A stretch of 64,000 nt of DNA from Planctomycetota bacterium (GTDB lineage Bacteria > Planctomycetota > Phycisphaerae > Phycisphaerales > UBA1924): NCBI GenBank assembly GCA_038748775.1, contig JBCDIT010000016.1, forward strand, positions 6,600 to 70,599. The letters run 5' to 3'. The notes below the pieces were generated by a model. That model was not told where the DNA came from and did not search any database. It worked only from the letters and a program-made list of their open reading frames with translations. Shown here one piece after another: positions 2,361 through 51,604 of this stretch. How positions within the stretch are numbered: position 1 is the first letter of the stretch; the number at the start of each line of letters is the position of its first letter. The translations under genes were made by a program, and so were the position numbers.

Positions 2361-3398
<1,038 letters not shown>

Positions 3399-32485: not shown

Positions 32486-33688
32486 TTACTGAAGTGTTCG
32501 CATCCAGTGGTCCAATGCCGCGCCTTGGGTGTCGGCGGTCGGACGGAAGAAGGCGGAATGGACGCCGTATTTCAGTCTGAGCTGTTCAAACAGGTTGAGG
32601 TTGCAAAGGCTTGGGTCCCAGGTGGCAGATCCGTATGAGGTATCCGGTGACATCGACGCCGCGCCGCCACCGGCTTCGAACCGCGACGACATCGGGTCCG
32701 GCTCAGATTCGTAGTTCGTCCATCGGCGTACGGCGCCGGGGATGACTTCGCGGTCTCGGTAGAACCCGGGAAACAACGACGCAATGAGATCATACGGGTG
32801 ACCAAAAGTCGCAAGCTCGTACGTGACATCATCGCGGAAGTGCTCGGATCGGCTGATGTACTCCGTTGCGGCGATCGCGCCCATGCTAAAGCCGAGGAGA
32901 TGGATCGGACTGCTCAGGTCGGTCGTAGGGCTCGAGTCGACGATGATGTCGATCGCCGTTCGCACGCACTTCGCGATACGCCGAGATGAACGACTGAACG
33001 GCGAGCGGAGCAGCGAGACAAGCGACACGAATTCCGACGATGCCTTTCCCGTCGCTCGGAACAACTGAGGCCACGCAAATCGCAGGATGATCCCGATCGC
33101 GCCGACGCCCGCGAATGCCGTCACCACCGGATTCTCCGCGACGTCCAGCCCTTCGAGCAGCGGAACTTGATCGAGCAACGCCACCACGCCAAAGGCGGCC
33201 GCGAGCGCGAGCAGCATCGCCAAGACGCCGCTCGCGAAGAGTATGAAGATGTACGCGATCGTCAGCGGCTTCGAGGGTCCTCGGACCAGCAAACGGGCGA
33301 TACGCCAGGTTTCCGTGAGTGGGGCGATGTTCCTGAAAAGCCCGGCGACGCCCTCGACCTTTGTGTTGCCCTCGAGGCACGCGAGCACGCTGAGTGAGTG
33401 AACCGTCGCGAACGCTTGATTCTTGCGCCGGATCGATGCCCGTTGCACGACAGTTCCGTCAGGCAGCACGAGCGAAGATCGGTCCGAGACTTCGAACGTA
33501 CCTCCCAAGACCCGCTTGCCGGCGCTCGCGATGCGATGGGCAACAGTGCTTGCTGATTGGTCGAGAATCTTCTCCGACACCATGCCCTGGATGAACAAGA
33601 TGCGCATGGGTGTCGACAAGGCGGGCGTTCTGTCCGACGGCTGGTTCATCTTGGGCGAAGCGTAACCCGGGACCGGACGTTGAGTCAC
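32486..33688 (-). CDS. membrane protein with lipase/esterase-like GxSxG site
   Basis: 400-aa ORF with central TM helices (IAYIFILFASGVLAMLLALAAAFGVVALL, FAGVGAIGIILRF) and a nucleophile elbow IHLLGFSMGAIAATEY. Lower G+C. Start uncertain. Confidence 0.5.
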   Translation of the reverse strand: MTQRPVPGYASPKMNQPSDRTPALSTPMRILFIQGMVSEKILDQSASTVAHRIASAGKRVLGGTFEVSDRSSLVLPDGTVVQRASIRRKNQAFATVHSLSVLACLEGNTKVEGVAGLFRNIAPLTETWRIARLLVRGPSKPLTIAYIFILFASGVLAMLLALAAAFGVVALLDQVPLLEGLDVAENPVVTAFAGVGAIGIILRFAWPQLFRATGKASSEFVSLVSLLRSPFSRSSRRIAKCVRTAIDIIVDSSPTTDLSSPIHLLGFSMGAIAATEYISRSEHFRDDVTYELATFGHPYDLIASLFPGFYRDREVIPGAVRRWTNYESEPDPMSSRFEAGGGAASMSPDTSYGSATWDPSLCNLNLFEQLRLKYGVHSAFFRPTADTQGAALDHWMRTLQ

Positions 33689-34116: not shown

Positions 34117-34824
34117 ATGAAGAAGCTTTCTCTTGGTGTCGTCGCGATGGCGGCGTCCGTGCTGTCGGCGGCGCCGACGACGTTCTTTGGTTTGGATGCC
34201 GGGGTCAATCCAACAGATCCGCGGCCGCGCTCCGATGCCGCGCGTGATCGTTTCCTGAACGCGGCCGGGTCCGTTTCCACGCTGACCTACGACGGTCTGA
34301 GCACGACGGCGAATGACACGTCTGCGAAGAACGTCGGGCTCGGAGTGCTGATGTCGGTCTCCGGCGATATGCGGAGCGGCATCCGCTCGACGCCCGGGTC
34401 GGCCTCGAACGGTTTCCGGACTTCGGGTGCGAACCGTTTCTTCCTGAGCGATACTAATGGAGCGATGGGCGGGGCGCCGGTGCTCACGATCGATTTCGCG
34501 GCGCCGGTCGATTCGTTCGGCAGCTACTTCACCGGGCTCAGCACCGCCGGCGGCAACACCCTGACGCTGACGTACTCCGATGGCGGGGTCGAACAACTTT
34601 CGTTGTCTGGCGCGCTGACCGGCGGGTCGCTCTACTTCGGGTTTGTCGACGCTGGCCGGAGCATCTCGCAGCTGCGCATCTCGTCGGCCAACGCGGGCGA
34701 CAGTTTCTCTCTCGACGACACGTCATTCCGCCTCACGTCGGCCCCCATCCCGCTGCCGACCGCATCGGCGATGGGGCTCGTGGGTCTCTCGCTCGTCGGG
34801 TTCGGTCGCCGTCGTTCAACTTGA
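34117..34824 (+). CDS. PEP-CTERM-anchored secreted protein
   Basis: Signal peptide MKKLSLGVVAMAASVLSA and C-terminus APIPLPTASAMGLVGLSLVGFGRRRST. Confidence 0.7.
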   Translation: MKKLSLGVVAMAASVLSAAPTTFFGLDAGVNPTDPRPRSDAARDRFLNAAGSVSTLTYDGLSTTANDTSAKNVGLGVLMSVSGDMRSGIRSTPGSASNGFRTSGANRFFLSDTNGAMGGAPVLTIDFAAPVDSFGSYFTGLSTAGGNTLTLTYSDGGVEQLSLSGALTGGSLYFGFVDAGRSISQLRISSANAGDSFSLDDTSFRLTSAPIPLPTASAMGLVGLSLVGFGRRRST

Positions 34825-34923: not shown

Positions 34924-35051
34924 GGGTGCCACGGGTCGACCCGAAGGACAACCCGTGAGGTCCCTCGTGGCACGTGTGTCCGACCGGTGTTTCTGGGGTG
35001 GTCGCCGTCTCGGACGGCACGGTTTGCCCTTCGGGTCAAACCGTGGCACCC
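34924..35051. repeat. 128-nt palindromic (REP/BIME-like) unit
   Basis: Bounded by GGGTGCCACGG (34924-34934) and CCGTGGCACCC (35041-35051). Internal hairpin CACGGTTTG...CAAACCGTG. It ends exactly at the RAYT stop codon. Confidence 0.75.
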
Positions 35052-35648
35052 TCAGTCGGAGACCTCGCGTGACGGTGGTGGGGGAGACGACCGGTGGTCG
35101 ATGTCGGGCCACAACGTGTCCATGCGCTTCCACGCCCTCGCGGACGACCACGGCCAGTCGGTCGAAACTTCGACCAATCCTCGGCGCACTGGGTTGTCGT
35201 GGATGTACCCGATCTTCTCGACCAGCTCGTCCTCGCTGAAGATGTTCCGGTCGTACCCACCGCCCGCCTGCCAGAACCGGTCCCCGGTCGCAAGGCCCCG
35301 CTCGCGACCAAGCCTTCGGACGCTCGTCGCGACGGGCCGCTTGATCGCGCTCAAGATCCGCGCCACGTCCGCCCCCTCGGGCAGATCGGGCATCACGAGC
35401 AGGTGCACGTGCTCGGGCATCACCACCCACGCGAAGAGTCGGAACCCGAGCCGTGTGCGGGTCCACGCGAGTTGATCGGCGAACACGGTGCGTCCGTGCT
35501 CGTCGAGCGTCGGTTCACGCCGGTACGTCGAGAACGTCAGAAACCGAGCATGCCCCGGGATCTCGTACCGACGGAGTGTCTTGCGGATCGACACGCAAAG
35601 AGCGAACCACGATCCAAGCCCAATGTCAACGACGCGGCCAAGTTCCAC
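35052..35648 (-). CDS. REP-associated tyrosine transposase (IS200/IS605-type Y1 family)
   Basis: HUH motif VVMPEHVHLLV and catalytic-Tyr motif IGYIHDNPVRRGLV, with flanking REP-like hairpins. Possibly starts at a downstream codon. Confidence 0.8.
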   Translation of the reverse strand: MELGRVVDIGLGSWFALCVSIRKTLRRYEIPGHARFLTFSTYRREPTLDEHGRTVFADQLAWTRTRLGFRLFAWVVMPEHVHLLVMPDLPEGADVARILSAIKRPVATSVRRLGRERGLATGDRFWQAGGGYDRNIFSEDELVEKIGYIHDNPVRRGLVEVSTDWPWSSARAWKRMDTLWPDIDHRSSPPPPSREVSD

Positions 35649-35691
35649 ATGTCTGTGTCCCCACCCGGCCGAAGCGAGGATCCCCGCCCAA

Positions 35692-36311
35692 GGGTGCCAC
35701 GGCTTGACCCGAAGGGCAAGCCGTGCGGTCCGTCGCGGGACGCGTGTCCGAACGGTGTTTCTGGGATAGTCGCCGCCTCGGACGGCACGGTCTGCAAGTC
35801 AGACCGTGGCACCCTTGGTTCGGTGTCTGCGGCGACGATCAAGCAGTGGCACCCGGCTGCCGCCTCGAACGGCACGGTCTGCAAGTCAGACCGTGGCACC
35901 CTTGGCTTGACGACGGCGGTGACGGCCAAGCAGTGGCACCTGGCGGGATGCGTGTCCGACCGGTGTTTCTGGGGTGGTTGCCGCTTCGGACGGCACGGTC
36001 TGTAAGTCAGACCGTGGCACCCTTGGTTTCGGGGTCTGTGGTGACGGTCAACCAGTGGCACCCGGCACCCTTGGTTCGGCGTCTGTGGTGACGGCCAAGC
36101 AGTGGCACCCGGCCATCACCCAACCGAAGCGAGGGCCTCCATCAAAGGGTGCCACTGCTTGACCCGAAGGGCAAGCCGTGCGGTCCGTTGCGGGACGCGT
36201 GCCCGAGCGGTGTTTCTGGGGTGGTCGCCGCCCTGGACGGCACGGTCTGCAAGTCAGACCGTGGCACCCTTGGTTCGGCGTCTGTGGTGACGGCCAAGCA
36301 GTGGCACCCGG
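35692..36311. repeat. array of REP/BIME-like repeats (two unit types)
   Basis: Full ~123-nt units at 35692-35814 and 36147-36269, and 3' partial units at ~35858-35901 and 35950-36022. Five ~40-nt units ending CAGTGGCACC(C/T)GG lie at ~35815-35856, 35902-35943, 36023-36065, 36066-36112 and 36270-36311. Recurrent hairpin CACGGTCTG-CAAGT-CAGACCGTG. Confidence 0.8.
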
Positions 36312-36412
36312 CACCACCGGTAGCGCGTCGCGTGTGAACGCCAGTTTGTTCGGGATTCGAGGGGAATCGTCTTGGCGGTCATGGATTCGGGGCCGCGATG
36401 CCGATATGCTGA

Positions 36413-37168
36413 ATGCTATCGAGCAAAAAACTGGGCAGGAGATCGCCATTGCTTGACCAGATCATCGACCCGTTCGCATTCAGGTCCATCTCACGCTGGG
36501 GCATTCGGACCGGATTTGGAACCGCGTTGTTGGACTCATGTGAGTTGGCAGCGAGTTGCTTGGAAGAGATGAAGACCGGGCGGGTGGGTAGTCGGACAGC
36601 ACGCAATCGATTGCAGGAAGTGTCGTCCGACACATTGGCTGACTTCGTCCTCTCTGATGATCTAGCCAACCCTTGGGTCCCCAGGCCCTTGGCCGGGGGA
36701 GGGCACGAGTTCGTGATGCCAGGCGTTTGCGTGGTCCGACTCAAGGCAATCCACTCGGAAACCCATGCAGTGAGCGGCGCGAACGTTCATACGGGGCTGG
36801 GATTCCGTTTCGCCCAGCACACAGGTCCGACGTGGAATCAGCAACTTCCGCTCTTCGAGGGGCCTGTGACGCGAGCGATGCTCAGCGGGTGGCGAAAGAG
36901 CCGTGTTACAGAGTTCGCCGATCTCTGCGTACTTACGCTCGGCATGGATATGCGGCCGGATGCGGAGGACGGATGGCGAGGCTGCGTGTTTGAGAACGTG
37001 ATCGTTGCGTACAGAGCGCCCGTGAACCAGACGATTTGGTCATTCTCGGCGCGTGAGTTGCTCGGTCGGACGGTTGCGCAGGTCGAAGATGAGTTGGATC
37101 TGACCCAGCCGGCAACCGTCCGTGTGTTGGATGACGCGGCGGAGCTTCGTCGCAAGTACGGCGCCTAA
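36413..37168 (+). CDS. hypothetical protein (no recognisable family)
   Basis: 251-aa ATG-initiated ORF, 40 nt upstream of the XRE-ImmA gene on the same strand. Visibly lower G+C than core genes. Confidence 0.5.
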   Translation: MLSSKKLGRRSPLLDQIIDPFAFRSISRWGIRTGFGTALLDSCELAASCLEEMKTGRVGSRTARNRLQEVSSDTLADFVLSDDLANPWVPRPLAGGGHEFVMPGVCVVRLKAIHSETHAVSGANVHTGLGFRFAQHTGPTWNQQLPLFEGPVTRAMLSGWRKSRVTEFADLCVLTLGMDMRPDAEDGWRGCVFENVIVAYRAPVNQTIWSFSARELLGRTVAQVEDELDLTQPATVRVLDDAAELRRKYGA

Positions 37169-37208
37169 GGCCGATCCGCGTTCATCGCGCGTAGAGGGGA
37201 ACTGAGCG

Positions 37209-38285
37209 ATGATTAACAGTGAGTGGTTTGTAGTTGCGCGCCAAGCCAGCGGCATGTCGCAATCCGCGGTTGCGAAGACGACAGGAATTTCTTCCGCACG
37301 GTTATCGCGGATAGAAAACGGACTGCTCATTCCTGCAGTCCACGAGATTGATGCGATCGCCGCAGCGCTCGGAGTTCGTCGAGAGTTGTTTTCTGACTCG
37401 TCGACGATCCGTGGGCCTGGGACGTCAGTCGTCCACCATCGCGCGCTTCGTCGGGCCCGACGTCGCGATGTCGAGCGCGTGCATGCGAGAATGGCGCTTT
37501 TTGATTTGCAGTTGAGACGACTGCTTCGGCATGTTGAGCCGGAACACGACGGCGAGTTGATACCCGATCTGTCGATTGCAACGTTCGACGATGATGGGGC
37601 CGAGATTGCCCGCGAAGCGAGGTCGATCTTGCGGTTACCACCCGGACCCGTAAAAACTCCAAGTCGTGTCATTGAACGAAGCGGTGGAATAGTCGTTGAA
37701 GCCCGGTTCTTGACGGACGCTGTGAGCGCCATCTATCGCCTTACGCCAGAGCTTCCCCCGATGTTCTTTATCAACTATGTACACCCTGGCGATCGAACTC
37801 GCTTTAGCCTTGCCCATGAATTGGGGCATGCAGTAATGCACCGTCACATTGGAGCTGATGATGATCGGGTCGAACAACAGGCGGATGCATTTGCTGGCGA
37901 GTTTCTTGTTCCCAGAGACTGGTTGGTCGATCGTGTCCGTTCCGCGGTTACGGTCTCGCTGCTGTGTGATCTCAAGCAGGAAACTGGATTTTCGATTGCG
38001 ATGCTCGCGCGGCAGACAGCCAACGCTGGATTGATCAGCCCGCGACGTTTTCAGAACATCATGATCGAGTTGTCGAAGCGAGGGTGGCGAACCAGAGAAC
38101 CAATCGACGTTCCTCGTGAAACTCCGGAGTTGTTTAGAGGCATGGTCGGGTCACTGCGGCACGACCTCGGTTACCAGCAGGCCGAGATTGAGCACGTATT
38201 GCTCCGCGACGATCGCGCACGACAAGACGACGAGTTCCTGGTTGCGATTTCGGACGATGACGGTCCTCGATTGCGACTCGTTTAA
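37209..38285 (+). CDS. XRE-family HTH fused to ImmA/IrrE (M78, COG2856) zinc metallopeptidase
   Basis: N-terminal HTH ([29 protein letters not shown]) and HEXXH in [13 protein letters not shown], followed by a ~130-aa C-terminal region. Confidence 0.8.
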
Positions 38286-38520
38286 CCCATGTGCTTCACA
38301 ATCGCCGCCCCGAACTCCGAGCATTTCAGAAGCGTCGCACCCTCCATCAATCGCTCGAAGTCGTAGGTCACCGTCTTCGCCGTGATCACCCCCTCGATCC
38401 CCTTCACAATCAGGTCCGCGGCCTCCTGTCAGCCTATGTGCTCGAGCACCAAGACACCCGAGAGGATGACCGAGCCAGGGTGCACCTTGTCCTGGCCAAC
38501 GCACTTAGGGGACGTGCCGC
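38282..38520 (-). pseudogene. duplicated 3'-terminal fragment of isocitrate dehydrogenase gene (icd')
   Basis: Aligns by eye with 39555-39793 (roughly 85 % nt identity). It translates to [77 protein letters not shown], with TGG>TGA at 38429-38431. Homology stops at the stop codon. Confidence 0.8.
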
Positions 38521-38601
38521 CGGCGGGCGTGCGCGCTGTTCCTCAACGACAACGGCCCGAGCCTGGGCCCGGGCCGCGTCGGTGGCGTTTGAGTTGTGCG
38601 A

Positions 38602-39384
38602 TCAGCGGCGGCGGCGGGCGGCGGTGAGGCCGGCGAGGGCGAGGGCGGTGGCTCCGCTGGGGGGCGGGACGGTGGCGAAGAACTCGAATCCCTGGTGGAA
38701 GCCGATGTTGGCGTATCCGGCGGGGACGGAGCCGTCGCCGGTGAAGGGGACGAAGACCTCGACGGGGCTTCCGGCGTTGACGGCGGCGACCTGGACTTCC
38801 ACGCCGCTGAAGCCGGGGCTGGGCAGGAAGGCGTTGAACTCGAGGGCGAGGCCGGTGCGGATGGAGAAGGCGATGTCGGCGGACGAGACGGTGATGATGA
38901 AGCCGTCGGCCTGGCCGCCGCGGGTGTAGTCGACGCTCTGTCCGTGGCCGCGGCGTTCGAGGGTGCCGACCTGGGTGTCGTTGCCCCCTGGCGCCGATGA
39001 CGTGGCTATCTCCTGCCAGGACATGGCGGCTCGGAAGATGTCGGCGTCGTTTCGCGACGTGATACGGAAGGTGCCGTCGTTGACTTCGACGGACTGGTCG
39101 ACGGGGGCGCCGGTGAAGGCGTTGGTGGCGTTGTTGACAAAGAAGGAACCAACGAGGCGGTGGCCACCGAACTCGGCGGGGCCGGCGAGCGTCGTGGTGG
39201 CGGCGACCGAGGTGGCTGGCTGGACCGGTGCCATTTCGGTGAAGACGTTGCCGGCGGAGAAGTCGTCGATGAGATCGAGCTTCGTGCCGTTTGAATTGCC
39301 GAAGTGGATCGACTGGATTTCGATCGTCGCGGCGTGTGCGGGCGCAACGATCGCCAGGACGGACATGACAACTGCTCGGTGCAT
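38602..39384 (-). CDS. PEP-CTERM-anchored secreted protein
   Basis: ATG at 39384 (MHRAVVMSVLAIVAPAHA) and C-terminus VPPPSGATALALAGLTAARRRR. Confidence 0.7.
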   Translation of the reverse strand: MHRAVVMSVLAIVAPAHAATIEIQSIHFGNSNGTKLDLIDDFSAGNVFTEMAPVQPATSVAATTTLAGPAEFGGHRLVGSFFVNNATNAFTGAPVDQSVEVNDGTFRITSRNDADIFRAAMSWQEIATSSAPGGNDTQVGTLERRGHGQSVDYTRGGQADGFIITVSSADIAFSIRTGLALEFNAFLPSPGFSGVEVQVAAVNAGSPVEVFVPFTGDGSVPAGYANIGFHQGFEFFATVPPPSGATALALAGLTAARRRR

Positions 39385-39555
39385 GGGTCTCTCTCCTTGG
39401 TCTGTGCTCTCTCTGCGACTCTCTTCGTCCGCCTTGGGAGGCAGACTGTGCGGCGAATATAGCAACCCCCGTTCCGGGATGCAGGGGTATCCCGAGACGG
39501 GGGTTGCTGTTGACGGGTGGATCCGTGTTGGCTGGTTGGCGCGGTCGGGCTGTGA

Positions 39556-40788
39556 TCAGCCCATGTGCTTCACAATCGCCGCCCCAAACTCCGAGCACTT
39601 CAAGAGCGTTGCTCCCTCCATCAACCGCTCGAAGTCGTAGGTCACCGTCTTGGCGGTGATCGCACCCTCGATGCCCTTGACGATCAGGTCCGCGGCTTCT
39701 TGCCAGCCCATGTGTTCGAGCATGAGGACTCCCGAGAGGATGACGGAGCCGGGGTTGACCTTGTCCTGGCCGGCGTACTTGGGGGCCGTGCCGTGGGTGG
39801 CTTCGAAGATCGCGTGCCCGGTGTCGTAGTTGATGTTGGCTCCGGGTGCGATGCCGATGCCTCCGACGCAGGCGGCCAGCGCATCCGAGATGTAGTCGCC
39901 ATTGAGGTTCATGGTCGCGATGACCGAGTACTCCGCGGGGCGGGTGAGGATCTGCTGGAGGAAGGCGTCGGCGATGACGTCCTTGATGACGATGTCCTTG
40001 CCGGTCTTCGGGTTCTTGAGCGTGTGCCAGGGGCCTCCGTCGAGCGGGGTGGCGCCGAAGTGCTCGGCGCTGACCTCGTAGCCCCATTGCATGAAGGCAC
40101 CCTCGGTGAACTTCATGATGTTGCCCTTGTGCACCAGCGTGACCGAGGGCTTGTCGTGGTCGATGGCGTATTGGATGGCGGCGCGGACGATGCGCTCGGT
40201 GCCTTCCTGTGACACCGGCTTGATGCCGATGCCGGCGGTCTCGGGGAAGCGGACCTTCTTGAAGCGGTCGGGGAAGGCCTCGGCCAGCATCGCCTTGAAC
40301 TTCTTGTTGTCGTCCGTCCCCTGCTCGAACTCGATGCCGGCGTAGATGTCTTCGGAGTTCTCACGGAAGATGACCATGTCGGTCTTCTCCGGGTGCACGA
40401 CCGGGCTGGGCACGCCCTTGAAGTAGCGGACGGGGCGGAGGCAGGTGTACAGGTCGAGGATCTGACGCAACGCGACGTTCAGCGAGCGGATGCCTCCGCC
40501 GGTGGGGGTGGTCAGCGGGCCTTTGATGCCGACGAGGTACTTCTTGAAGTCGTCGAGCGTCGCCTGGGGCAGCCAGTCGCCGGTCGCGTTGTGCGATTTC
40601 TCGCCGGCCGCGACTTCGTGCCAGTGGATCTTCTTGGCGCCGCCGTAGGCCTTCTCGACCGCGGCGTCGAAGACCATGACCGAGGCGTTCCAGATGTCGG
40701 GCCCGGTGCCGTCGCCCTCGATGAAGGGGATGATGGGGTCGTTGGGGACCTGGAGGCCGGCGTCGGTCATGGTGATGGGGCTTGGCAT
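39556..40788 (-). CDS. icd: NADP-dependent isocitrate dehydrogenase
   Basis: Full-length 410-aa match to the prokaryotic IDH pattern ([39 protein letters not shown]). Confidence 0.95.
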
Positions 40789-42558: not shown

Positions 42559-45500
42559 TCAGCGCGTCGCGGTCGGCGCAAAGAGTGACTTTCCGGCGGT
42601 GCTCGTCCGGAGCGCAAACAGCGTGAACGCGCCGACGATGACCGCCGGCGTGAGGGCCGACGGGGCCCACCATTGGTCGTAGGGCGCTAAGTCGACGAAG
42701 TAGCTGAGCAGGGTCATCGAGGTGATCGTCGCGGCGGCCGCGAGCAGACCGACGCGGTCGAGCACGACGAGGACGAGCGTGACGCCGGCGAGCATCGCGA
42801 TGCGGTCGAGCGGGCCTTGGTTGGGTGCGACGAGCGACTGGGCGGCGACGAGCACCACGACGATCGCGATCGCCGGCCAGCGGCGTTTGACCTTGAGCAG
42901 CCCGAGCAGCACCATCACGATGAGGACGACGAACGCGAGGGCCGCCGCGTTGATGAGTCCGACCGCGACCTGGGCGAGGCTCAGGCCCAGCATGTCTCGC
43001 ATCCCGGTAAGCCCGCTCATCGTCCCGTTCATCGTTGGGAGACCGGTGTCGGCGCCGATCGAGGGCGCGAGGATCGGAGCGAAGAACTGGGCGAGAGACG
43101 CCGCCAGCCGGACGGCGACGCCGGCCGCGATCCCGAGGAGCAGGTCGCGGCCGATCATCGGGTCGGTGTACGCCCCTCCGAACAGACGCGTCCACGAGAC
43201 CAGCGACCCGGGCCAGCGCGATCTCGCGAGCGGCTCGACCGCGATGTAGCACGCGATGAGCACGAGCGCGAAGCCGAGCCCATAGGCATAGAGCGGGAAC
43301 GGACCGACGAACGCCTCGAACGTGATGATCGAAACATCGGCGCCCAACGCCGCGGAGAGTGTTGTAAACCCGAAGACGGTGAGGCCCAGCGTTGTCGCAC
43401 GCCGGAGGTCGCACCGCCCGAGGCGATAGTTGCGATAGGCCATGACGCCGGCGACAACGGTGATGATGAGGAAGACCAGCAGCCTCGCGATGCCGGCGAT
43501 GTACTGGACGACGACCGAGTCGGCGTTGATGCGGGCCGGGGGCGGCGCGTCGGGGGCGTTGGGCGACTCGAGGTGCCTCGGGGGTGTTTCGCCGAAGAAA
43601 TCTTGGCCCGGGGCTTTGGTTTCGGGTTCCTCGGGTTGTGTGCTCGCCTCAGTCGGGCTGCTTTCACCCGGTTGCGTTGCGCCGTCCGATGGGGCTCCGC
43701 CGTCTGCCTCGGGTCGGGCTTGGATTCTCGCCTCGGGTGCAGGGTCGGCACGCCATATCGAGAACTCAACGATGCGGCCATCGGCGGCCCCGGCGAACAC
43801 CTCGATCTCGTGCTCGGGCAGGACCGCTTCCGGGTCGGGCCAGACGCCTCGCCAGCCGCGGCGAACGTCGGCGTCCGCCCCGTCGCGGCGGATGGTCTCG
43901 GTCGGCTCGAAGAGCGAGACGTCGAGCCCCGCTGCCTCGAACGCGATCGACCAGTCGGGCTCTTGGGTCGATGGGATCCGGTCGTCGCCCCTGACCTCGG
44001 TCTGCGGGATGACTTTCAGAGATTGCAGGCGACGCTGCCCGTCGAGCATTATCTGGACCGCGCCCGGACCGACCGGGGCCGGGTCGGTCTGGTCGACGAC
44101 GTAGGCGGGGTTGATCGGGCTGAACCCGTCGGGCTCAAGGCGCAGCCAGAAGAGCAACGGGTCAGCGGTGGGCTCGGAGAGCGCATCCCACGAGTCGAGG
44201 TCTTCGGTCGAGATCGCGGTCGCGACACGGGCAAGCGTGTTGCCCGAGTAGTTCCACCCGGTGCGGATCGGGGCGTCGTCGGGCACGCTATGCCCGAGCG
44301 ATTCGAGCACTTCGAGCGCCGTTTCTTCCATCAACACCGGCGCCGAGGGCGCGGACGCGGTGGTGAGCAGCGTCGTCCCGTTGCCCAGCAGGACAGAGAG
44401 CGCCGTGAAGACGATGATTGCGCCGGTCAACGCCATCGCGATGGCTGGCTTCAGCGCGCCCTTGCCGCCCGAGGCGGCGATGAGTTCCGGGCTGGGTGTT
44501 TCGCCCGCCGCGATCGCGGCCGCGACGGGGTCGGCGCCGGGCAAGGCCGCGGCGACCGCCAGGGCGGACGCGGGGCGGTCAGCGGGGTCGGTCTCGGTGC
44601 ACCGTTCGACGAGCGCAGCGAGCGCCGGGTCGATGCCTCGGGTGCTGATCGAACTCAGTCCCACCGGGGTCGCGGTCGCTTCCCGCAGGGTCCTGAGCTC
44701 TGCGTAGCTCTTGGCGTCCCAGGCGGGCTTGCCGGTGAGGGTCTCGAAGATGACGAGCCCGAGGGCGTAGATGTCCGACGCCTTGCTGACGGCCCGCCCT
44801 TCGAACTGTTCGGGCGCCATGTAGGCGGGCGTGCCGGCGTTGGCCTCGGCGCCCGTCGTCACGTCACCGAACGCTCCGTCGCCGAATGCCCCTTCGCCGA
44901 ACGCGCCTTCATCGATGGCCGCGATCCCGAAGTCGGTGAGTCGGACGTTGCCCCGCCCGTCGAGCATGACGTTGGCCGGCTTCAGGTCGCGGTGGATCAC
45001 GCCCTGATCGTGAGCCGCGGCGAGCGCGGCGCAGAGCTGGCGAGCGACGTCGATCGCCTTGTCTTGGGGCAGCTTGCCGATGCGCCGGAGCAACGTCTGC
45101 AGGTCTTCCCCGTCGACGTACTCCATCGAGATGAACAGGTCGCCCCCCTGGTCGTCGGGGAGGCGGGCGATGTCGTGGATACGGCAGACGTTCTTGTGCG
45201 AGATACCCCGGGCCATTCGAACCTCGGCCCGGACACGCTCGGTCAGGTTGGCGTCGGCGGCGACGTGGCTGGGCAGCAGCTTGATCGCCACCGACTGGGC
45301 GAGCTCGAGGTCATCGGCCCGGTAGACCTCGCCCATACCGCCTCGACCCAGGAAGGCGACGACGCGGTAGCGTCCGGCGAGGGTGTCGCCTGGGTTGAAG
45401 CGTTGCGTCCGGATTAGGGATGGATCGCCAGCGGTGGCGCTGGCTTGGGTGGTGCGGGCGGGGCCCGGCGCGGGGTTGGGCGTCGAACCCGGGTTCTCGG

Positions 45501-45573
45501 GTGGCGTAGTACCTTCCCCGGGGATCGGCGTGGGGTCTTGGGTTTCGTCGATTTCTCGGGGCACCGGACTCAT
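42559..45573 (-). CDS. Ser/Thr protein kinase with large polytopic C-terminal membrane domain
   Basis: Hanks kinase motifs (GRGGMGEVY, AIK, HRDLKPANV, DFG, APE) and about 10 predicted helices in the C-terminal half. 1004 aa. Confidence 0.85.
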   Translation of the reverse strand: MSPVPREIDETQDPTPIPGEGTTPPENPGSTPNPAPGPARTTQASATAGDPSLIRTQRFNPGDTLAGRYRVVAFLGRGGMGEVYRADDLELAQSVAIKLLPSHVAADANLTERVRAEVRMARGISHKNVCRIHDIARLPDDQGGDLFISMEYVDGEDLQTLLRRIGKLPQDKAIDVARQLCAALAAAHDQGVIHRDLKPANVMLDGRGNVRLTDFGIAAIDEGAFGEGAFGDGAFGDVTTGAEANAGTPAYMAPEQFEGRAVSKASDIYALGLVIFETLTGKPAWDAKSYAELRTLREATATPVGLSSISTRGIDPALAALVERCTETDPADRPASALAVAAALPGADPVAAAIAAGETPSPELIAASGGKGALKPAIAMALTGAIIVFTALSVLLGNGTTLLTTASAPSAPVLMEETALEVLESLGHSVPDDAPIRTGWNYSGNTLARVATAISTEDLDSWDALSEPTADPLLFWLRLEPDGFSPINPAYVVDQTDPAPVGPGAVQIMLDGQRRLQSLKVIPQTEVRGDDRIPSTQEPDWSIAFEAAGLDVSLFEPTETIRRDGADADVRRGWRGVWPDPEAVLPEHEIEVFAGAADGRIVEFSIWRADPAPEARIQARPEADGGAPSDGATQPGESSPTEASTQPEEPETKAPGQDFFGETPPRHLESPNAPDAPPPARINADSVVVQYIAGIARLLVFLIITVVAGVMAYRNYRLGRCDLRRATTLGLTVFGFTTLSAALGADVSIITFEAFVGPFPLYAYGLGFALVLIACYIAVEPLARSRWPGSLVSWTRLFGGAYTDPMIGRDLLLGIAAGVAVRLAASLAQFFAPILAPSIGADTGLPTMNGTMSGLTGMRDMLGLSLAQVAVGLINAAALAFVVLIVMVLLGLLKVKRRWPAIAIVVVLVAAQSLVAPNQGPLDRIAMLAGVTLVLVVLDRVGLLAAAATITSMTLLSYFVDLAPYDQWWAPSALTPAVIVGAFTLFALRTSTAGKSLFAPTATR

Positions 45574-48232: not shown

Positions 48233-48370
48233 CGGCTGGCTTGAAGCCGTGCATCTGGTCGGCCCGAGGAGCTACGCTGTGGTGCTGGTACGCCCAGGAT
48301 CTTGGTTCATCTGCTGTCAGGGACCTCGCAAGGTGCTTTGTTCCTCGGAGGCTTGGCGTCTCCTCTGCCC

Positions 48371-51300
48371 ATGTCCGACCTTCCCACGAAACTCGCCCAG
48401 TACGTCGTCGAGCGAGAGCTCGGCCGTGGTGGCATGGGGGTGGTCTATCTCGCTTGCGACCCCAAGCTCGACCGCCCCGTCGCGATCAAGGTCTTGCCCG
48501 ATTCGATGACCGAGCACCCCGATCGGCTGGCTCGGTTTAGCCGCGAGGCGAAGATCGTCGCGCAGCTCAACCACCCCAACATCGCCGGCGTGTATGCGCT
48601 CCACGAGCACCTGGGTCGCCAGATGCTCGTGATGGAGTATGTCGAGGGCGTGAACCTCGACGAAAGGCTGAGCGCCGGCATGGCGCTGACGGTTCAGGAG
48701 GCGATTCAGATCTGCGTGCAGACAGCCGCGGGGCTCGAAGCGGCCCACACCCACGGCGTGATCCACCGCGACCTCAAGCCCGGGAACATCCGTATCCGCA
48801 AGGACGGGATGGTTAAGGTGCTGGACTTCGGGCTCGCCAAACCCGAGGCCGATGCACACGGGGCCGGTGCCGACAGCGACGACACGATGAGCCTGGCGGC
48901 GACCGAAGCGGGGCGGGTGCTGGGCACCGCCGGCTATATGAGCCCCGAGCAAGCACGCGGCAAGCCCGTCGACAAGCGGACCGATGTCTGGGCCTTTGGA
49001 TGTGTGTTGTACGAGTGTCTCACAAGCACGCGTGCGTTCGGGGGTGACACGGCGATGGACGCGATGGTCGCCGTGCTCGAGAAGCAGCCGGCGTGGGAAC
49101 GCTTGCCAGAGCAGTTGCCCGACAGCCTCGCCGATCTGCTGAGGCGTTGCCTCGAGAAAGACGCCGACCGACGGGCACGCGACATCGGTGACGTTCGCCT
49201 GCAGCTCGAGGACGCCCTTGCGTCGTGGGGCACCGCCGGGTCGGTTGCCTACGGGGGGTGGCGGTCGCGCAGCGGTACCGGGTCGACGACCGGATCTGCG
49301 ACGGGGTCTGCGACCGGAGCGACGGCCGGTCGTTCGTCGAACGCGTCACCCGGCGCGTCGTCATCGGCATCTTCGCAAGGCGGACCGGGTCGGCCGGTCT
49401 TCAATGTCGGGAGTGGCGGCTCTGGCTCGGGCGTCGCAGGTCTCGCGACGCCGACGAACCTCAAGGCGCAGCTCACCAAGTTCATCGGTCGCGGCGCGAT
49501 CTTGAGCGACCTCAGCTCGCTCATCGAAGAGCAGCGGCTGCTCACGCTCACCGGCGCCGCCGGGTGCGGGAAGACAAGGCTCGCGATCGAAGCCGCGGCG
49601 AGGCGAGCGTCCGAGCACCGGGGCGGCGTGTGGATCGTCGAGCTCGGCGCCCTCGATCCTGCGTCGGCGAACGCGGACCGGGTGGCGGTTGAGATCGCGA
49701 CGGTCTTGGGCGTGCCGATCGCCGATGGAGCGTCACCGGCCGACCAGCTGATCGTTGCCCTCGCGGGTCGCGAGGCCTTGCTGATTATGGACAACTGCGA
49801 GCACGTGCTCGAGCCGGTCGACGAGATCGTCGCGAGGCTGCTCAGCGTGTGCCCGGGGGTACGCGTGCTGGCAACGGCGCGAGAGGCCCTGGGGCTTCCG
49901 GGTGAGACGGTCCTCAGCGTGCCCCCGATGGACGTGCCCCCGCCCGATGGTGCGTCGGATCCGGAGCTGCTCGAGGCCAACGAGTCGGTGCAGTTGTTCC
50001 TCGATCGCGCCCGCGCTGTGCGACCGAGGTTCTGTCTGACACCGAGCAACATCGGCGCCGTGGTCCGCGTGTGCCGGGAACTCGACGGGATCCCGCTCGC
50101 GATCGAACTCGCCGCGGCCCGGGTGAAGCTGTTGAGCGTTGAACAGATCGCCGAGCGTCTGGGTCAGCGGTTCAAGCTTCTCCGGGGCGGTGGCAAGCAG
50201 ACGCCGACGCGGCAGCAGACGCTTCACGCGGCGATCGCGTGGAGCTACGACAATCTCGAACCGTCCGAGCAAGCGGCGATGCGCCGCCTCAGCGTGTTCG
50301 GCTCGGGCTTCACGCTCGGGGCCGCGGAGGCGGTCAGCTCGGGCGAGTATGCCGAGCACGCCACCCCGGGCGATCTGAACGAAGACTCGGTCCTCGAAGA
50401 GTGGGAGGTGATCGATCTCGTCGGCCAACTGCTCGACAAGAGCCTGCTCATCGTCGACGAGGGGATCGATGACACGCGACCGTCCGACGAGCCGCGGTAC
50501 CGCATGCTCGAGACGATACGTCAGTTTGGCTTGCTTCAGCTCGAGTCCGGAGGCGAGTCTGAAGAAGCGCAGAACCGCCTCCTGGCATGGATGGCCGGCG
50601 TCGCCGCCGAAGCCGGCGAAGGTCTCGTCGGCCCGGACCAATCAACGTGGTTCGACCGGCTCGATCGGGAGCAAGCGTCGATCAGGGCGGCGCTCGGGTG
50701 GGTGCTTTCGGGCAAAGGCGATCTTGAGCGTGGTCGTCAGCTCGCCGCCGGCGTGTGGCGTTTCTGGGCGTACCGGGGGTACATGGGCGAGGGACGCTCT
50801 CTGCTCACCCGGCTCGACGCGGCCGGCGCCGGGGGTGAACCGACCGCCGCGTGGGCGCGGCTGCGTGAGGGGATCAGTTGGACCGCGATGCTCATCGGTG
50901 ATCTCGGGTCGGCGATCGCGTTCGGGCGGTCAGGGCTCGAGATGGCGCGCGCTTCGGGTGATGAGTTGGCAGTATCGAATCTCCTGAACTGTCTCGGAGC
51001 CGCGTGTCTCGGTGAGGGGTTGGCCGATCAAGCGGCCGACTACTTCGAGCAGTCGTTGATGATCCGCAAGCGGTTCAACAAGTTGACACTCGCCGCGGCG
51101 TGCCTGAACAACTTGGGCGAGTGCCGCCGCCAGTCACGCGCGTTCGCCGAGGCGCGCGAGCTGTACCGTGAGGCCGCGCTGGCGTTGGGCGGATCGACTG
51201 ATGTCTTGCTCCGCGCGACGATCTCGCAGAACCTCGGTTGGCTCGCGCTCGCCGAGGATGATCCGGCGATCGCCGGTGAGCATGCCGAGGCGGCGCTCGA

Positions 51301-51604
51301 AGTGGTCGCATCGGCGGGCGCCGAGGGCGAGGCGCCGGCGCTGCTCGAACTGTGCGCTTCGATCGCCAGCGCAAGCGAAGACCATCCAACCGCCGTGCTG
51401 CTCTTCGCCGCCGCGGAGAGCAACCGCGAGAAACAGGGAAGCCCGCCTCGGCCGAGCGTGCGTCGCGACTTCGAGCCTTGGCTTCGTCGCTCGTTCGACG
51501 CGCTGCCCGTCGCGGAGCTCAGTCGCGCGAGGGCGTCGGGCATCTCCATGTCGATCCGATCCGCGATCCAAGCGGCGCTCTCACCGCGAATCGACGGCGG
51601 ATAA
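48371..51604 (+). CDS. Ser/Thr kinase fused to STAND/AAA ATPase and TPR repeats (PknK-like architecture)
   Basis: The ATG at 48371 gives MSDLPTKLAQYVVERELGRGGMGVVY. Kinase motifs HRDLKPGNI and DFGLA, Walker A LTGAAGCGKTRLA, Walker B LLIMDNCEHV, and a C-terminal TPR-like helical repeat region. Confidence 0.85.
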   Translation: MSDLPTKLAQYVVERELGRGGMGVVYLACDPKLDRPVAIKVLPDSMTEHPDRLARFSREAKIVAQLNHPNIAGVYALHEHLGRQMLVMEYVEGVNLDERLSAGMALTVQEAIQICVQTAAGLEAAHTHGVIHRDLKPGNIRIRKDGMVKVLDFGLAKPEADAHGAGADSDDTMSLAATEAGRVLGTAGYMSPEQARGKPVDKRTDVWAFGCVLYECLTSTRAFGGDTAMDAMVAVLEKQPAWERLPEQLPDSLADLLRRCLEKDADRRARDIGDVRLQLEDALASWGTAGSVAYGGWRSRSGTGSTTGSATGSATGATAGRSSNASPGASSSASSQGGPGRPVFNVGSGGSGSGVAGLATPTNLKAQLTKFIGRGAILSDLSSLIEEQRLLTLTGAAGCGKTRLAIEAAARRASEHRGGVWIVELGALDPASANADRVAVEIATVLGVPIADGASPADQLIVALAGREALLIMDNCEHVLEPVDEIVARLLSVCPGVRVLATAREALGLPGETVLSVPPMDVPPPDGASDPELLEANESVQLFLDRARAVRPRFCLTPSNIGAVVRVCRELDGIPLAIELAAARVKLLSVEQIAERLGQRFKLLRGGGKQTPTRQQTLHAAIAWSYDNLEPSEQAAMRRLSVFGSGFTLGAAEAVSSGEYAEHATPGDLNEDSVLEEWEVIDLVGQLLDKSLLIVDEGIDDTRPSDEPRYRMLETIRQFGLLQLESGGESEEAQNRLLAWMAGVAAEAGEGLVGPDQSTWFDRLDREQASIRAALGWVLSGKGDLERGRQLAAGVWRFWAYRGYMGEGRSLLTRLDAAGAGGEPTAAWARLREGISWTAMLIGDLGSAIAFGRSGLEMARASGDELAVSNLLNCLGAACLGEGLADQAADYFEQSLMIRKRFNKLTLAAACLNNLGECRRQSRAFAEARELYREAALALGGSTDVLLRATISQNLGWLALAEDDPAIAGEHAEAALEVVASAGAEGEAPALLELCASIASASEDHPTAVLLFAAAESNREKQGSPPRPSVRRDFEPWLRRSFDALPVAELSRARASGISMSIRSAIQAALSPRIDGG

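Follow-up and report, generated by a model that had tools for sequence, protein, structure and literature searches.

The 64,000-nt window analysed here (contig JBCDIT010000016.1, Planctomycetota bacterium) carries a cassette of two same-strand open reading frames (ORFs), gene 1 (36413-37168, +, 251 aa) and gene 2 (37209-38285, +, 358 aa), with a spacing of 40 nt. We read this cassette, with a probability of roughly 0.6, as a stand-alone, horizontally acquired toxin-antitoxin or abortive-infection operon of Rosmer (RmrT/RmrA) type whose effector is soluble and divergent. Direct support comes from the domain architecture and the intact catalytic motif of gene 2, the conserved pairing and order of the two genes, purifying selection on both parts of gene 1, the foreign composition of the cassette and its presence in a second genomic context.

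Domain architecture of gene 2

The product of gene 2 combines a helix-turn-helix (HTH) domain with a metallopeptidase of the M78 family. In Pfam, HTH_3 covers residues 10-59 (3.5e-11) and Peptidase_M78 covers residues 160-268 (3.1e-15). The HELGH motif, the downstream E222 and the AxxFAxxxLxP motif are all intact, and residues H203, E204, H207, E222, A225, F228, A229, L233 and P235 do not vary when gene 2 is aligned with 25 homologues (26 sequences). An original prediction, made from the letters of the window, had described gene 2 as an XRE-type HTH fused to an HEXXH peptidase of the ImmA/IrrE type, and HTH_3, Peptidase_M78 and the HELGH motif at residues 203-207 bear this out.

Fifteen RmrA (Rosmer antitoxin) models of PADLOC match gene 2 over its full length. 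The best of them, PDLC03949 (1.3e-45), aligns residues 1-329 of 358 with profile positions 1-320 of 363. Gene 2 also matches phrog_2439 (4.3e-62) and the NCBIfam model antitox_spr1629, 'spr1629 family repressor/antitoxin' (1.3e-21, under the cutoff of the model). The PADLOC models capP and capH each match their own domain, capP the protease core (1.1e-14) and capH the HTH domain region (7.8e-4). A sequence search of the PDB with gene 2 returns no solved relative at E ≤ 0.01. On full-length profile similarity through both the HTH and the M78 domain, gene 2 belongs to the RmrA family.

Organization and composition of the cassette

The cassette is bounded on the left by an array of repetitive extragenic palindromic (REP) elements and on the right by a 241-nt fragment of the icd 3' end (icd'). 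The stop codon of gene 2 (TAA, 38283-38285) shares two bases with that of icd' (TAA, minus strand, 38282-38284). The features are:

36380..36448, + strand: operon 5' leader, with the blocks ATGGnnTnGGGGCCG and ATCGA(G)CAAAAAAnTGGG(A)CAGGAG common to the only homologous locus; it holds the Shine-Dalgarno sequence for the TTG start.
36449..37168, + strand: gene 1, candidate effector/toxin (RmrT-like by position), 239 aa with TTG 36449 as the start; ATG 36413 begins the longest ORF.
37169..37208, + strand: intergenic spacer of 40 nt, with the purine-rich ribosome-binding site GAGGGGAA before the ATG of gene 2.
37209..38285, + strand: gene 2, RmrA-like antitoxin/regulator, 358 aa; HTH at 37236-37385, M78 domain at 37686-38012.
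37815..37829, + strand: HELGH zinc-binding/catalytic motif of gene 2 (aa 203-207).
38282..38526, - strand: icd', a pseudogene copy of the last ~80 icd codons, 85% identical to 39560-39800; context only, outside the cassette.

The G+C content is 0.60 in gene 1 and 0.56 in gene 2, against 0.647 for the window. It dips to 0.54-0.61 over 36200-38400, while the surroundings lie at 0.63-0.72. G+C at third codon positions (GC3) is 0.70 in gene 1 and 0.565 in gene 2, and 0.75-0.93 in ten neighbouring genes. The cassette is compositionally foreign because both G+C and GC3 fall below those of the neighbours. The coordinates and the GC3 values agree with the original picture of two co-directional, lower-G+C genes 40 nt apart, the second of which overlaps the icd' stop codon with its own. 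The end of the REP array, placed there at exactly 36311, needs correction, as the repeats reach about 36312-36343. No terminator-like site lies between gene 1 and gene 2, and the two genes therefore form an operon. No Rfam family is found around the cassette.

Gene 1 and its single homologue

Gene 1 has one true homologue, a 240-aa JGI protein (P0001) that is 62% identical over the whole length. It was searched for with a word-indexed search of 5.8 billion cluster representatives and with an exhaustive HMMER profile search of 1.84 billion representatives, the representatives standing for ~15 billion sequences. Both searches return only two sequences, the NCBI entry of this locus (150 aa) and P0001. 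A third HMMER match to the gene 1 profile (6e-4) was dismissed as spurious.

Gene 1 and P0001 differ in the manner of coding genes. The proportions of non-synonymous (pN) and synonymous (pS) differences are 0.26 and 0.72, the ratio of the corresponding rates (dN/dS) is ~0.13, and the differences fall 76/48/141 on the first, second and third codon positions. The first 90 codons show the same pattern (pN 0.23, pS 0.68). This is of importance for the N-terminal region, as the NCBI annotation (AAGI53_15970) starts gene 1 at Met102 and gives the C-terminal 150 aa only. The N-terminal ~100 residues that NCBI leaves uncalled align with P0001 and, on this comparison, are coding and under purifying selection. 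TTG 36449 aligns with the GTG start of P0001 behind a conserved CAGGAG, so the true start is probably TTG 36449 and the product 239 aa long, shorter than the 251 aa first assumed.

The protein is soluble, without a transmembrane segment, and its maximum 19-residue hydropathy (KD19) is 0.92. It has no match in Pfam, PADLOC, NCBIfam or PHROGs. A profile search of the PDB gives nothing at E ≤ 10, tblastn against phage and plasmid records gives nothing at E ≤ 1, and degenerate-pattern scans of metagenome and viral contigs give nothing. Structure prediction followed by Foldseek, the route originally proposed for this protein, returned only noise. The AlphaFold2 models have a predicted local distance difference test score (pLDDT) of 35 with a 2-sequence alignment and of 44.7 with a 5-sequence alignment, the latter with a predicted template-modelling score (pTM) of 0.48. 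The best Foldseek match in the PDB, fructose-1,6-bisphosphatase (E 0.015, template-modelling score 0.29), was rejected as noise from a low-confidence model.

The pair in a second genomic context

On the contig of P0001 (L001) a gene 2 homologue lies 21 nt downstream of the gene 1 homologue. When window positions 36290-36520 are aligned with L001 340-575, similarity begins at about 36380, ~70 nt before the start codon, and there is none further upstream. The flanks of L001 have no similarity to the window. Upstream there is an apparent C-terminus of a GMC oxidoreductase, with no REP elements. Since the flanks of L001 are unlike those of the window, the cassette is, as far as these alignments reach, present in two unrelated contexts.

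Partner genes of the RmrA-like proteins

The nearest homologues of gene 2 are 31-38% identical, and all of them have a co-directional upstream gene without a Pfam domain. Six of these partners measure 198-235 aa and one measures 97 aa, and the gaps range from -17 to +30 nt. A further 160 loci with RmrA-like genes were taken from metagenome and IMG/VR contigs. At least 600 nt of upstream sequence were present in 154 of them, and in 148 of these 154 an ORF lies upstream on the same strand. The ORF is 180-290 aa long in 125 of the 148, and for these the median gap is 5 nt.

An all-against-all phmmer comparison joins 78 of 144 partners in one family, called family U here. A family U partner occurs in 38 of the 40 fetched loci whose RmrA is closest to gene 2, and in 55 of the top 60. 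Gene 1 (239-251 aa, 40 nt before gene 2) thus fills the slot held by family U beside the closest relatives of gene 2. Among the PHROGs, phrog_15813 (unknown function) is matched by family U, while searches of Pfam, NCBIfam and PADLOC with it give nothing convincing. The sole PADLOC match among gene 1, P0001 and 16 family U partners is a marginal one to PDC-M13B (E 0.0069). Gene 1 and family U are soluble, with no nuclease, pore or other toxin signature and no match in the toxin libraries.

To avoid circularity, a search was also made from the partner side. Family U matches one phage record (Acinetobacter phage vB_AbaM_ABMM1) and six plasmid-collection records. In all seven inspected records, a gene of ~355 aa annotated as 'ImmA/IrrE family metallo-endopeptidase' or 'XRE family regulator' lies directly downstream. 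P0001 and the seven remote-family records thus all co-occur with a COG2856/XRE-type gene, so that the refuting condition set by the original prediction, a lack of any such co-occurrence, does not hold.

The neighbours of related cassettes include IS1595, IS1 and DDE transposases, N6 DNA methylases, a PD-(D/E)XK nuclease, a tyrosine recombinase and phage structural genes. Ten large downstream ORFs of related cassettes include no integrase. Homologous pairs are common in IMG/VR viral contigs, and some related cassettes lie inside prophages.

Some individual loci deserve mention. The insertion sequence (IS) IS1595 lies divergently upstream in four loci near the cassette of the window in sequence (L002 334-1296, L003 1430-2098, L005 59-1081 and L006 1081-2169), and IS1-like genes lie downstream in three related loci (L007 4130-5017, L099 1896-2825 and L182 3579-4451). 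This suggests that the pair hitch-hikes with IS elements. On the Devosia sp. plasmid CP104975.1 (L251), the family U partner at 2501-3105 is apparently disrupted; tblastn finds it in two pieces, and only a 213-nt coding sequence is annotated. It may be a decayed toxin beside a retained antitoxin.

Relation of gene 1 to family U

The alignment of the gene 1 pair profile with the 69-sequence alignment of family U by hhalign has a score of 32.7 (P 8.4e-5). It is collinear over 187 columns, with gene 1 residues 5-248 on positions 4-203 of 214 in family U. All controls stay well below this score. Column shuffles (120) give a mean of 12.5 with a standard deviation of 2.35 and a maximum of 19.7, shuffles of 10-residue blocks (100) a mean of 13.9 and a maximum of 22.0, and the reversed sequence a score of 10.6. 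Against six other partner clusters the gene 1 profile scores 13.8-18.2. Pairwise BLASTP reaches no significance, and of the comparisons made only that with the 69-sequence profile yields a signal.

About half of the best-conserved positions of family U are kept in gene 1 (K111, T127, G150, W209 and P233). The motifs kept are the Lys of RFKK (as RLKAI), the N-x-x-T of SNiPT (as ANVHT), LP..G, the near-invariant Trp and the C-terminal Pro. Gene 1 lacks the second Lys of RFKK and a conserved Tyr, and has an insertion of ~35-40 residues at roughly residues 140-175 (251-aa numbering). From this profile comparison remote homology between gene 1 and family U is likely, and it is not proven. The original statement that gene 1 has no recognisable motif is to be modified, in that the protein probably belongs, as a remote outlier, to an unnamed family of partners.

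Proposed mechanism

We infer that gene 1 is toxic and is neutralised by gene 2, that the operon is autoregulated and responds to a trigger, and that it has an anti-phage function. The XRE-type HTH of gene 2 would bind the conserved leader upstream of gene 1 and repress the operon. Gene 1, as the cognate upstream partner, would be a soluble cytoplasmic effector or toxin of ~239 aa and a highly diverged member of family U. The M78 domain of gene 2 would restrain this product, by binding or by proteolysis, and serve as the switch. On a trigger, for example phage infection or damage to DNA, the RmrA-like protein would be inactivated, self-cleaved or titrated, and the effector, freed or over-expressed, would arrest cell growth. 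ImmA/ImmR, IrrE/DdrO and CapP/CapH offer an analogy in which the protein that carries the HTH may itself be cleaved as the switch, and a self-proteolysis switch was proposed for Rosmer-like systems (PMC10440598). In RosmerTA, a system of phage defence, a Zn-peptidase antitoxin is paired with a toxin of unknown function, and the ΔrmrA construct was not transformable (bioRxiv 10.1101/2022.05.11.491447). ImmA/RmrA forms a hub antitoxin of the NetFlax network, with many unrelated toxins; it often has an HTH at its N-terminus, and in 58% of the pairs the toxin gene precedes it (PMC10440598).

Several observations weigh against the Rosmer-type reading. No experiment or homology points to toxicity of gene 1 or of family U. 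Gene 1, P0001 and 16 family U members find no RmrT match in PADLOC, and a standard defence finder would therefore call no Rosmer system here. The link to family U is weak by conventional measures: hmmsearch of gene 1 against family U gives E = 0.2-0.7, hhalign against a 3-member sub-family of the nearest partners gives a probability of 0.2%, and the HH probability against the whole of family U is just 60%. Most family U loci were gathered upstream of RmrA homologues, and the association was checked independently in 7 records only. The gene 1 family has two members, so that conservation of the pair rests on n = 2. The leader upstream of gene 1 has no match to the sigma-70 consensus, and no operator-like inverted repeat or palindrome is found there. 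For these two reasons the leader (36380-36448) is only presumed to be the promoter and the operator for the HTH of gene 2.

Alternative explanations

A stress-responsive pair without a toxin is the foremost alternative, and we regard it as unlikely. Gene 2 would then be a damage-sensing protease-repressor like IrrE or CapP, and gene 1 a non-toxic co-factor, sensor, adaptor or substrate. M78 proteases such as IrrE and CapP do act as signal-sensing regulators, and the match of capP to the core of gene 2 (1.1e-14) is in line with this, as are the solubility of gene 1 and family U and the lack of a toxin signature or toxin-library match in both. The strict co-inheritance of family U with the protease fits an obligate subunit as well as it fits a toxin. 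However, the HTH is N-terminal in gene 2, a domain order unlike that of IrrE, and there is no downstream regulated cargo such as that of CBASS (cyclic-oligonucleotide-based anti-phage signalling system), as the operon ends against icd'. The cassette is also a mobile, self-contained unit, found in phages, on plasmids and at IS-flanked sites, which is typical of addiction and defence modules, and the tested systems of this antitoxin architecture had toxic partners (PMC10440598; bioRxiv 10.1101/2022.05.11.491447). Ranked below it is the possibility that an integrative element or prophage has decayed and left the pair as its regulatory end, with gene 2 as a repressor with a built-in protease, gene 1 as an accessory lysogeny gene and icd' as an att scar. 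It would explain why the module meets the icd 3' fragment stop to stop, why most codon differences between the two copies of icd are synonymous (24 versus 10), as expected of an element with its own icd 3' end, and why the composition of the module is foreign. Homologous pairs in viral contigs of IMG/VR, the position of the pair ~1-2 kb from antirepressor and repressor genes in Acinetobacter phage ABMM1, and one plasmid copy that adjoins a tyrosine recombinase point the same way. Yet the HTH and the protease are fused in one protein, unlike ImmR/ImmA, and gene 2 matches the RmrA profile end to end. The module lies outside the icd-to-icd' interval, whose one gene has a native GC3 of 0.85, and the putative icd remnant on its left (36357-36382) is equalled by 3% of random windows. 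No integrase, excisionase or phage domain is present in the 20 surrounding ORFs tested, nor is an integrase among the 10 downstream neighbours tested at related cassettes. The same pair occurs in the unrelated L001 context, related cassettes lie next to IS elements and on plasmids without a prophage, neither gene is broken, and purifying selection acts on gene 1.

The idea that gene 1 is non-functional, either a chance ORF in G+C-rich DNA or real only in the 150-aa C-terminal part called by NCBI, retains a negligible probability. The short NCBI call, the near absence of homologues and the pLDDT of 35-45 would suit it. It is effectively refuted by the dN/dS of ~0.13 and the predominance of third-position differences, which extends to the first 90 codons (pN 0.23, pS 0.68); the 240-aa homologue aligns at full length with 62% identity, and the start context and the Shine-Dalgarno sequence are conserved. 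Conservation of the ORF in relatives, on which the original prediction had also made its case depend, is thus seen at 62% identity and dN/dS ~0.13. That prediction had offered two readings, and the first, a stand-alone Xre-COG2856 module with a variable upstream effector, is the better one. It is upheld in that gene 2 is of the RmrA type, the pair is kept in an unrelated context and linked upstream partners of ~200-240 aa are the rule, while the toxic effect and the response to phage or stress keep the standing of predictions. The PADLOC defence models, a scan of the kind proposed there, match gene 2 as RmrA and give nothing for gene 1. We disfavour the second reading, a regulatory end left over from a decayed element, because the HTH and protease domains are fused, no integrase or phage domain is found in the 20 ORFs tested nearby and the module lies outside the icd/icd' duplication.

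Within the Rosmer-type reading, a tentative extension, to which we give somewhat less than even odds, is that gene 1 and family U share a new soluble effector fold that is the obligate partner of a large HTH-M78 clade across phages, plasmids and several phyla. If true, this would be an unrecognised, widespread Rosmer subtype with a mechanism of killing or sensing unlike that of the membrane-depolarising RmrT. The type of system, a protease-HTH antitoxin with interchangeable toxins, is already described, and the present case extends this known theme. It adds a phrog_15813-like partner family and an extreme planctomycete outlier, which current defence and toxin-antitoxin finders miss, and corrects the shortened public annotation of gene 1. 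Such cassettes are now documented in Phycisphaerales-like planctomycetes, where defence systems are little studied, and an icd 3'-end duplication that recalls integration of the e14 type is recorded in a distant phylum.

The icd duplication and other neighbouring genes

The intact icd gene occupies 39556-40788 on the minus strand (Pfam Iso_dh 5e-93), and its segment 39560-39800 shares 85% identity with positions 38286-38526 of icd'. The fragment carries an in-frame stop codon (W to *). Relative to the 3' end of the intact gene it has 24 synonymous and 10 non-synonymous codon differences, and since synonymous differences dominate, the two copies diverged mostly under purifying selection. The intact icd is nearer to the best Phycisphaerales icd (73/80 residues) than icd' is (63/80). 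In E. coli, e14 and phage 21 are icd-targeting elements that bring their own icd 3' end, and in e14 lit and mcrA adjoin the att sites. In this comparison icd' looks like the footprint of an icd-targeting integration or of a duplication, and resembles an e14-like element.

The ~1-kb interval between the icd copies holds a single 287-aa gene (38602-39465, -) of native composition (GC3 0.85), and the cassette is outside this interval. No Pfam domain of an integrase, excisionase or phage occurs in 20 ORFs tested between 21.4 and 51.6 kb, a subset of the ORFs of the window. A candidate third icd remnant at 36357-36382 (26 nt; 77% identical to icd 39635-39660 and 69% to icd') was rejected, as 3% of random 151-nt windows match or exceed its local alignment score of 14. 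If real, it would have put the cassette inside a tandem-integration scar. In a comparison aimed at the empty site, the closest GTDB relatives of icd, with up to 85% amino-acid identity, come from Phycisphaerales metagenome-assembled genomes in which synteny stops at icd itself. These relatives are too distant for a mapping of the insertion boundaries. Judging by the stop-to-stop junction, joint transfer of the cassette and the icd' segment is possible.

The REP-like array at 34924-36343 consists of families of 40-200 nt, in direct and inverted orientation, around an IS200-like Y1 transposase gene at 35052-35648 (Y1_Tnp 3e-06). This is an arrangement of the type formed by REP elements and REP-associated tyrosine transposases (REP/RAYT), directly left of the cassette and in a planctomycete-like genome. 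The ORFs at 38602-39465 (-) and 34117-34824 (+) encode proteins of 287 and 235 aa with no Pfam domain and with N-termini like signal peptides. By eye the C-termini of the same two proteins are PEP-CTERM-like, a hydrophobic stretch followed by RRRR/RRR. A 400-aa ORF at 32486-33688 (-), with a lower G+C of 0.61, a GC3 of 0.75 and no Pfam match, has hydrophobic segments and a GFSMG motif like the nucleophile elbow of lipases and esterases. It may be another acquired gene. Large Ser/Thr protein kinases are encoded at 42559-45573 (-) and 48302-51604 (+), the second with Pkinase, NB-ARC/AAA (signal transduction ATPase with numerous domains, STAND) and TPR repeats. The related cassettes L003 and L096 likewise have kinase genes beside them; given what planctomycete genomes contain, this is probably coincidental.

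Comparison with known systems

The locus shares with e14 and phage 21 the duplicated icd 3' end with mostly synonymous differences, and protease-type, defence-like cargo beside the duplicated segment. It differs in that no integrase is found in the 20 ORFs tested, that ~1 kb with one native-looking gene separates the copies and that the cassette is outside this interval.

With ImmR/ImmA of ICEBs1 and the phage anti-repressor switches, the cassette has in common an M78 metallopeptidase and an XRE-type HTH, and a proteolytic switch on an HTH repressor is a plausible shared principle. Here, however, both domains are in one 358-aa polypeptide and not in separate repressor and protease genes, an extra conserved upstream partner is present, and the ORFs tested include no adjacent integrase or element genes. 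IrrE (PprI)/DdrO of Deinococcus and CapP/CapH of CBASS share the M78 peptidase core and the logic of a protease that senses damage or infection. In these systems the repressor and the protease are separate genes, and the regulated downstream defence operon is not seen here. In IrrE/PprI the M78 domain comes first, the HTH second and a GAF-like domain last; in gene 2, by contrast, the HTH is N-terminal and the peptidase central.

The pairs of family U (phrog_15813) and phrog_2439 are close counterparts in layout. They include gp30-gp31 of Acinetobacter phage vB_AbaM_ABMM1 and pairs on plasmids of Roseicitreum, Polaromonas, Rhizobium and Devosia. Gene 1 lies beyond sequence-to-profile detection with family U, but in the profile-profile alignment it is collinear with the family and shows its RxK, N-x-x-T, LP-G and W motifs. 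The pairs have the same architecture, the same tight spacing and similar sizes (~200-240 and 350-370 aa), and gene 2 is 28-38% identical to their protease-HTH proteins.

RosmerTA itself differs in its partner and its host. Gene 1 belongs to no recognised RmrT family, as PADLOC finds no RmrT match, and would represent an unmodelled one. It has no transmembrane segment, whereas RmrT of Gordonia phage Kita is membrane-depolarising (PMC10440598). The host is a Phycisphaerales-like planctomycete, in which toxicity and defence are predicted. In both cases, nevertheless, the system is a two-gene operon whose second gene has an N-terminal HTH and an ImmA-type Zn peptidase, here with an RmrA match over the full length. 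A variable partner without recognisable domains, a common toxin-first order and residence in prophages, plasmids and chromosomal islands are further traits in common (Millman et al. 2022; Ernits et al. 2023).

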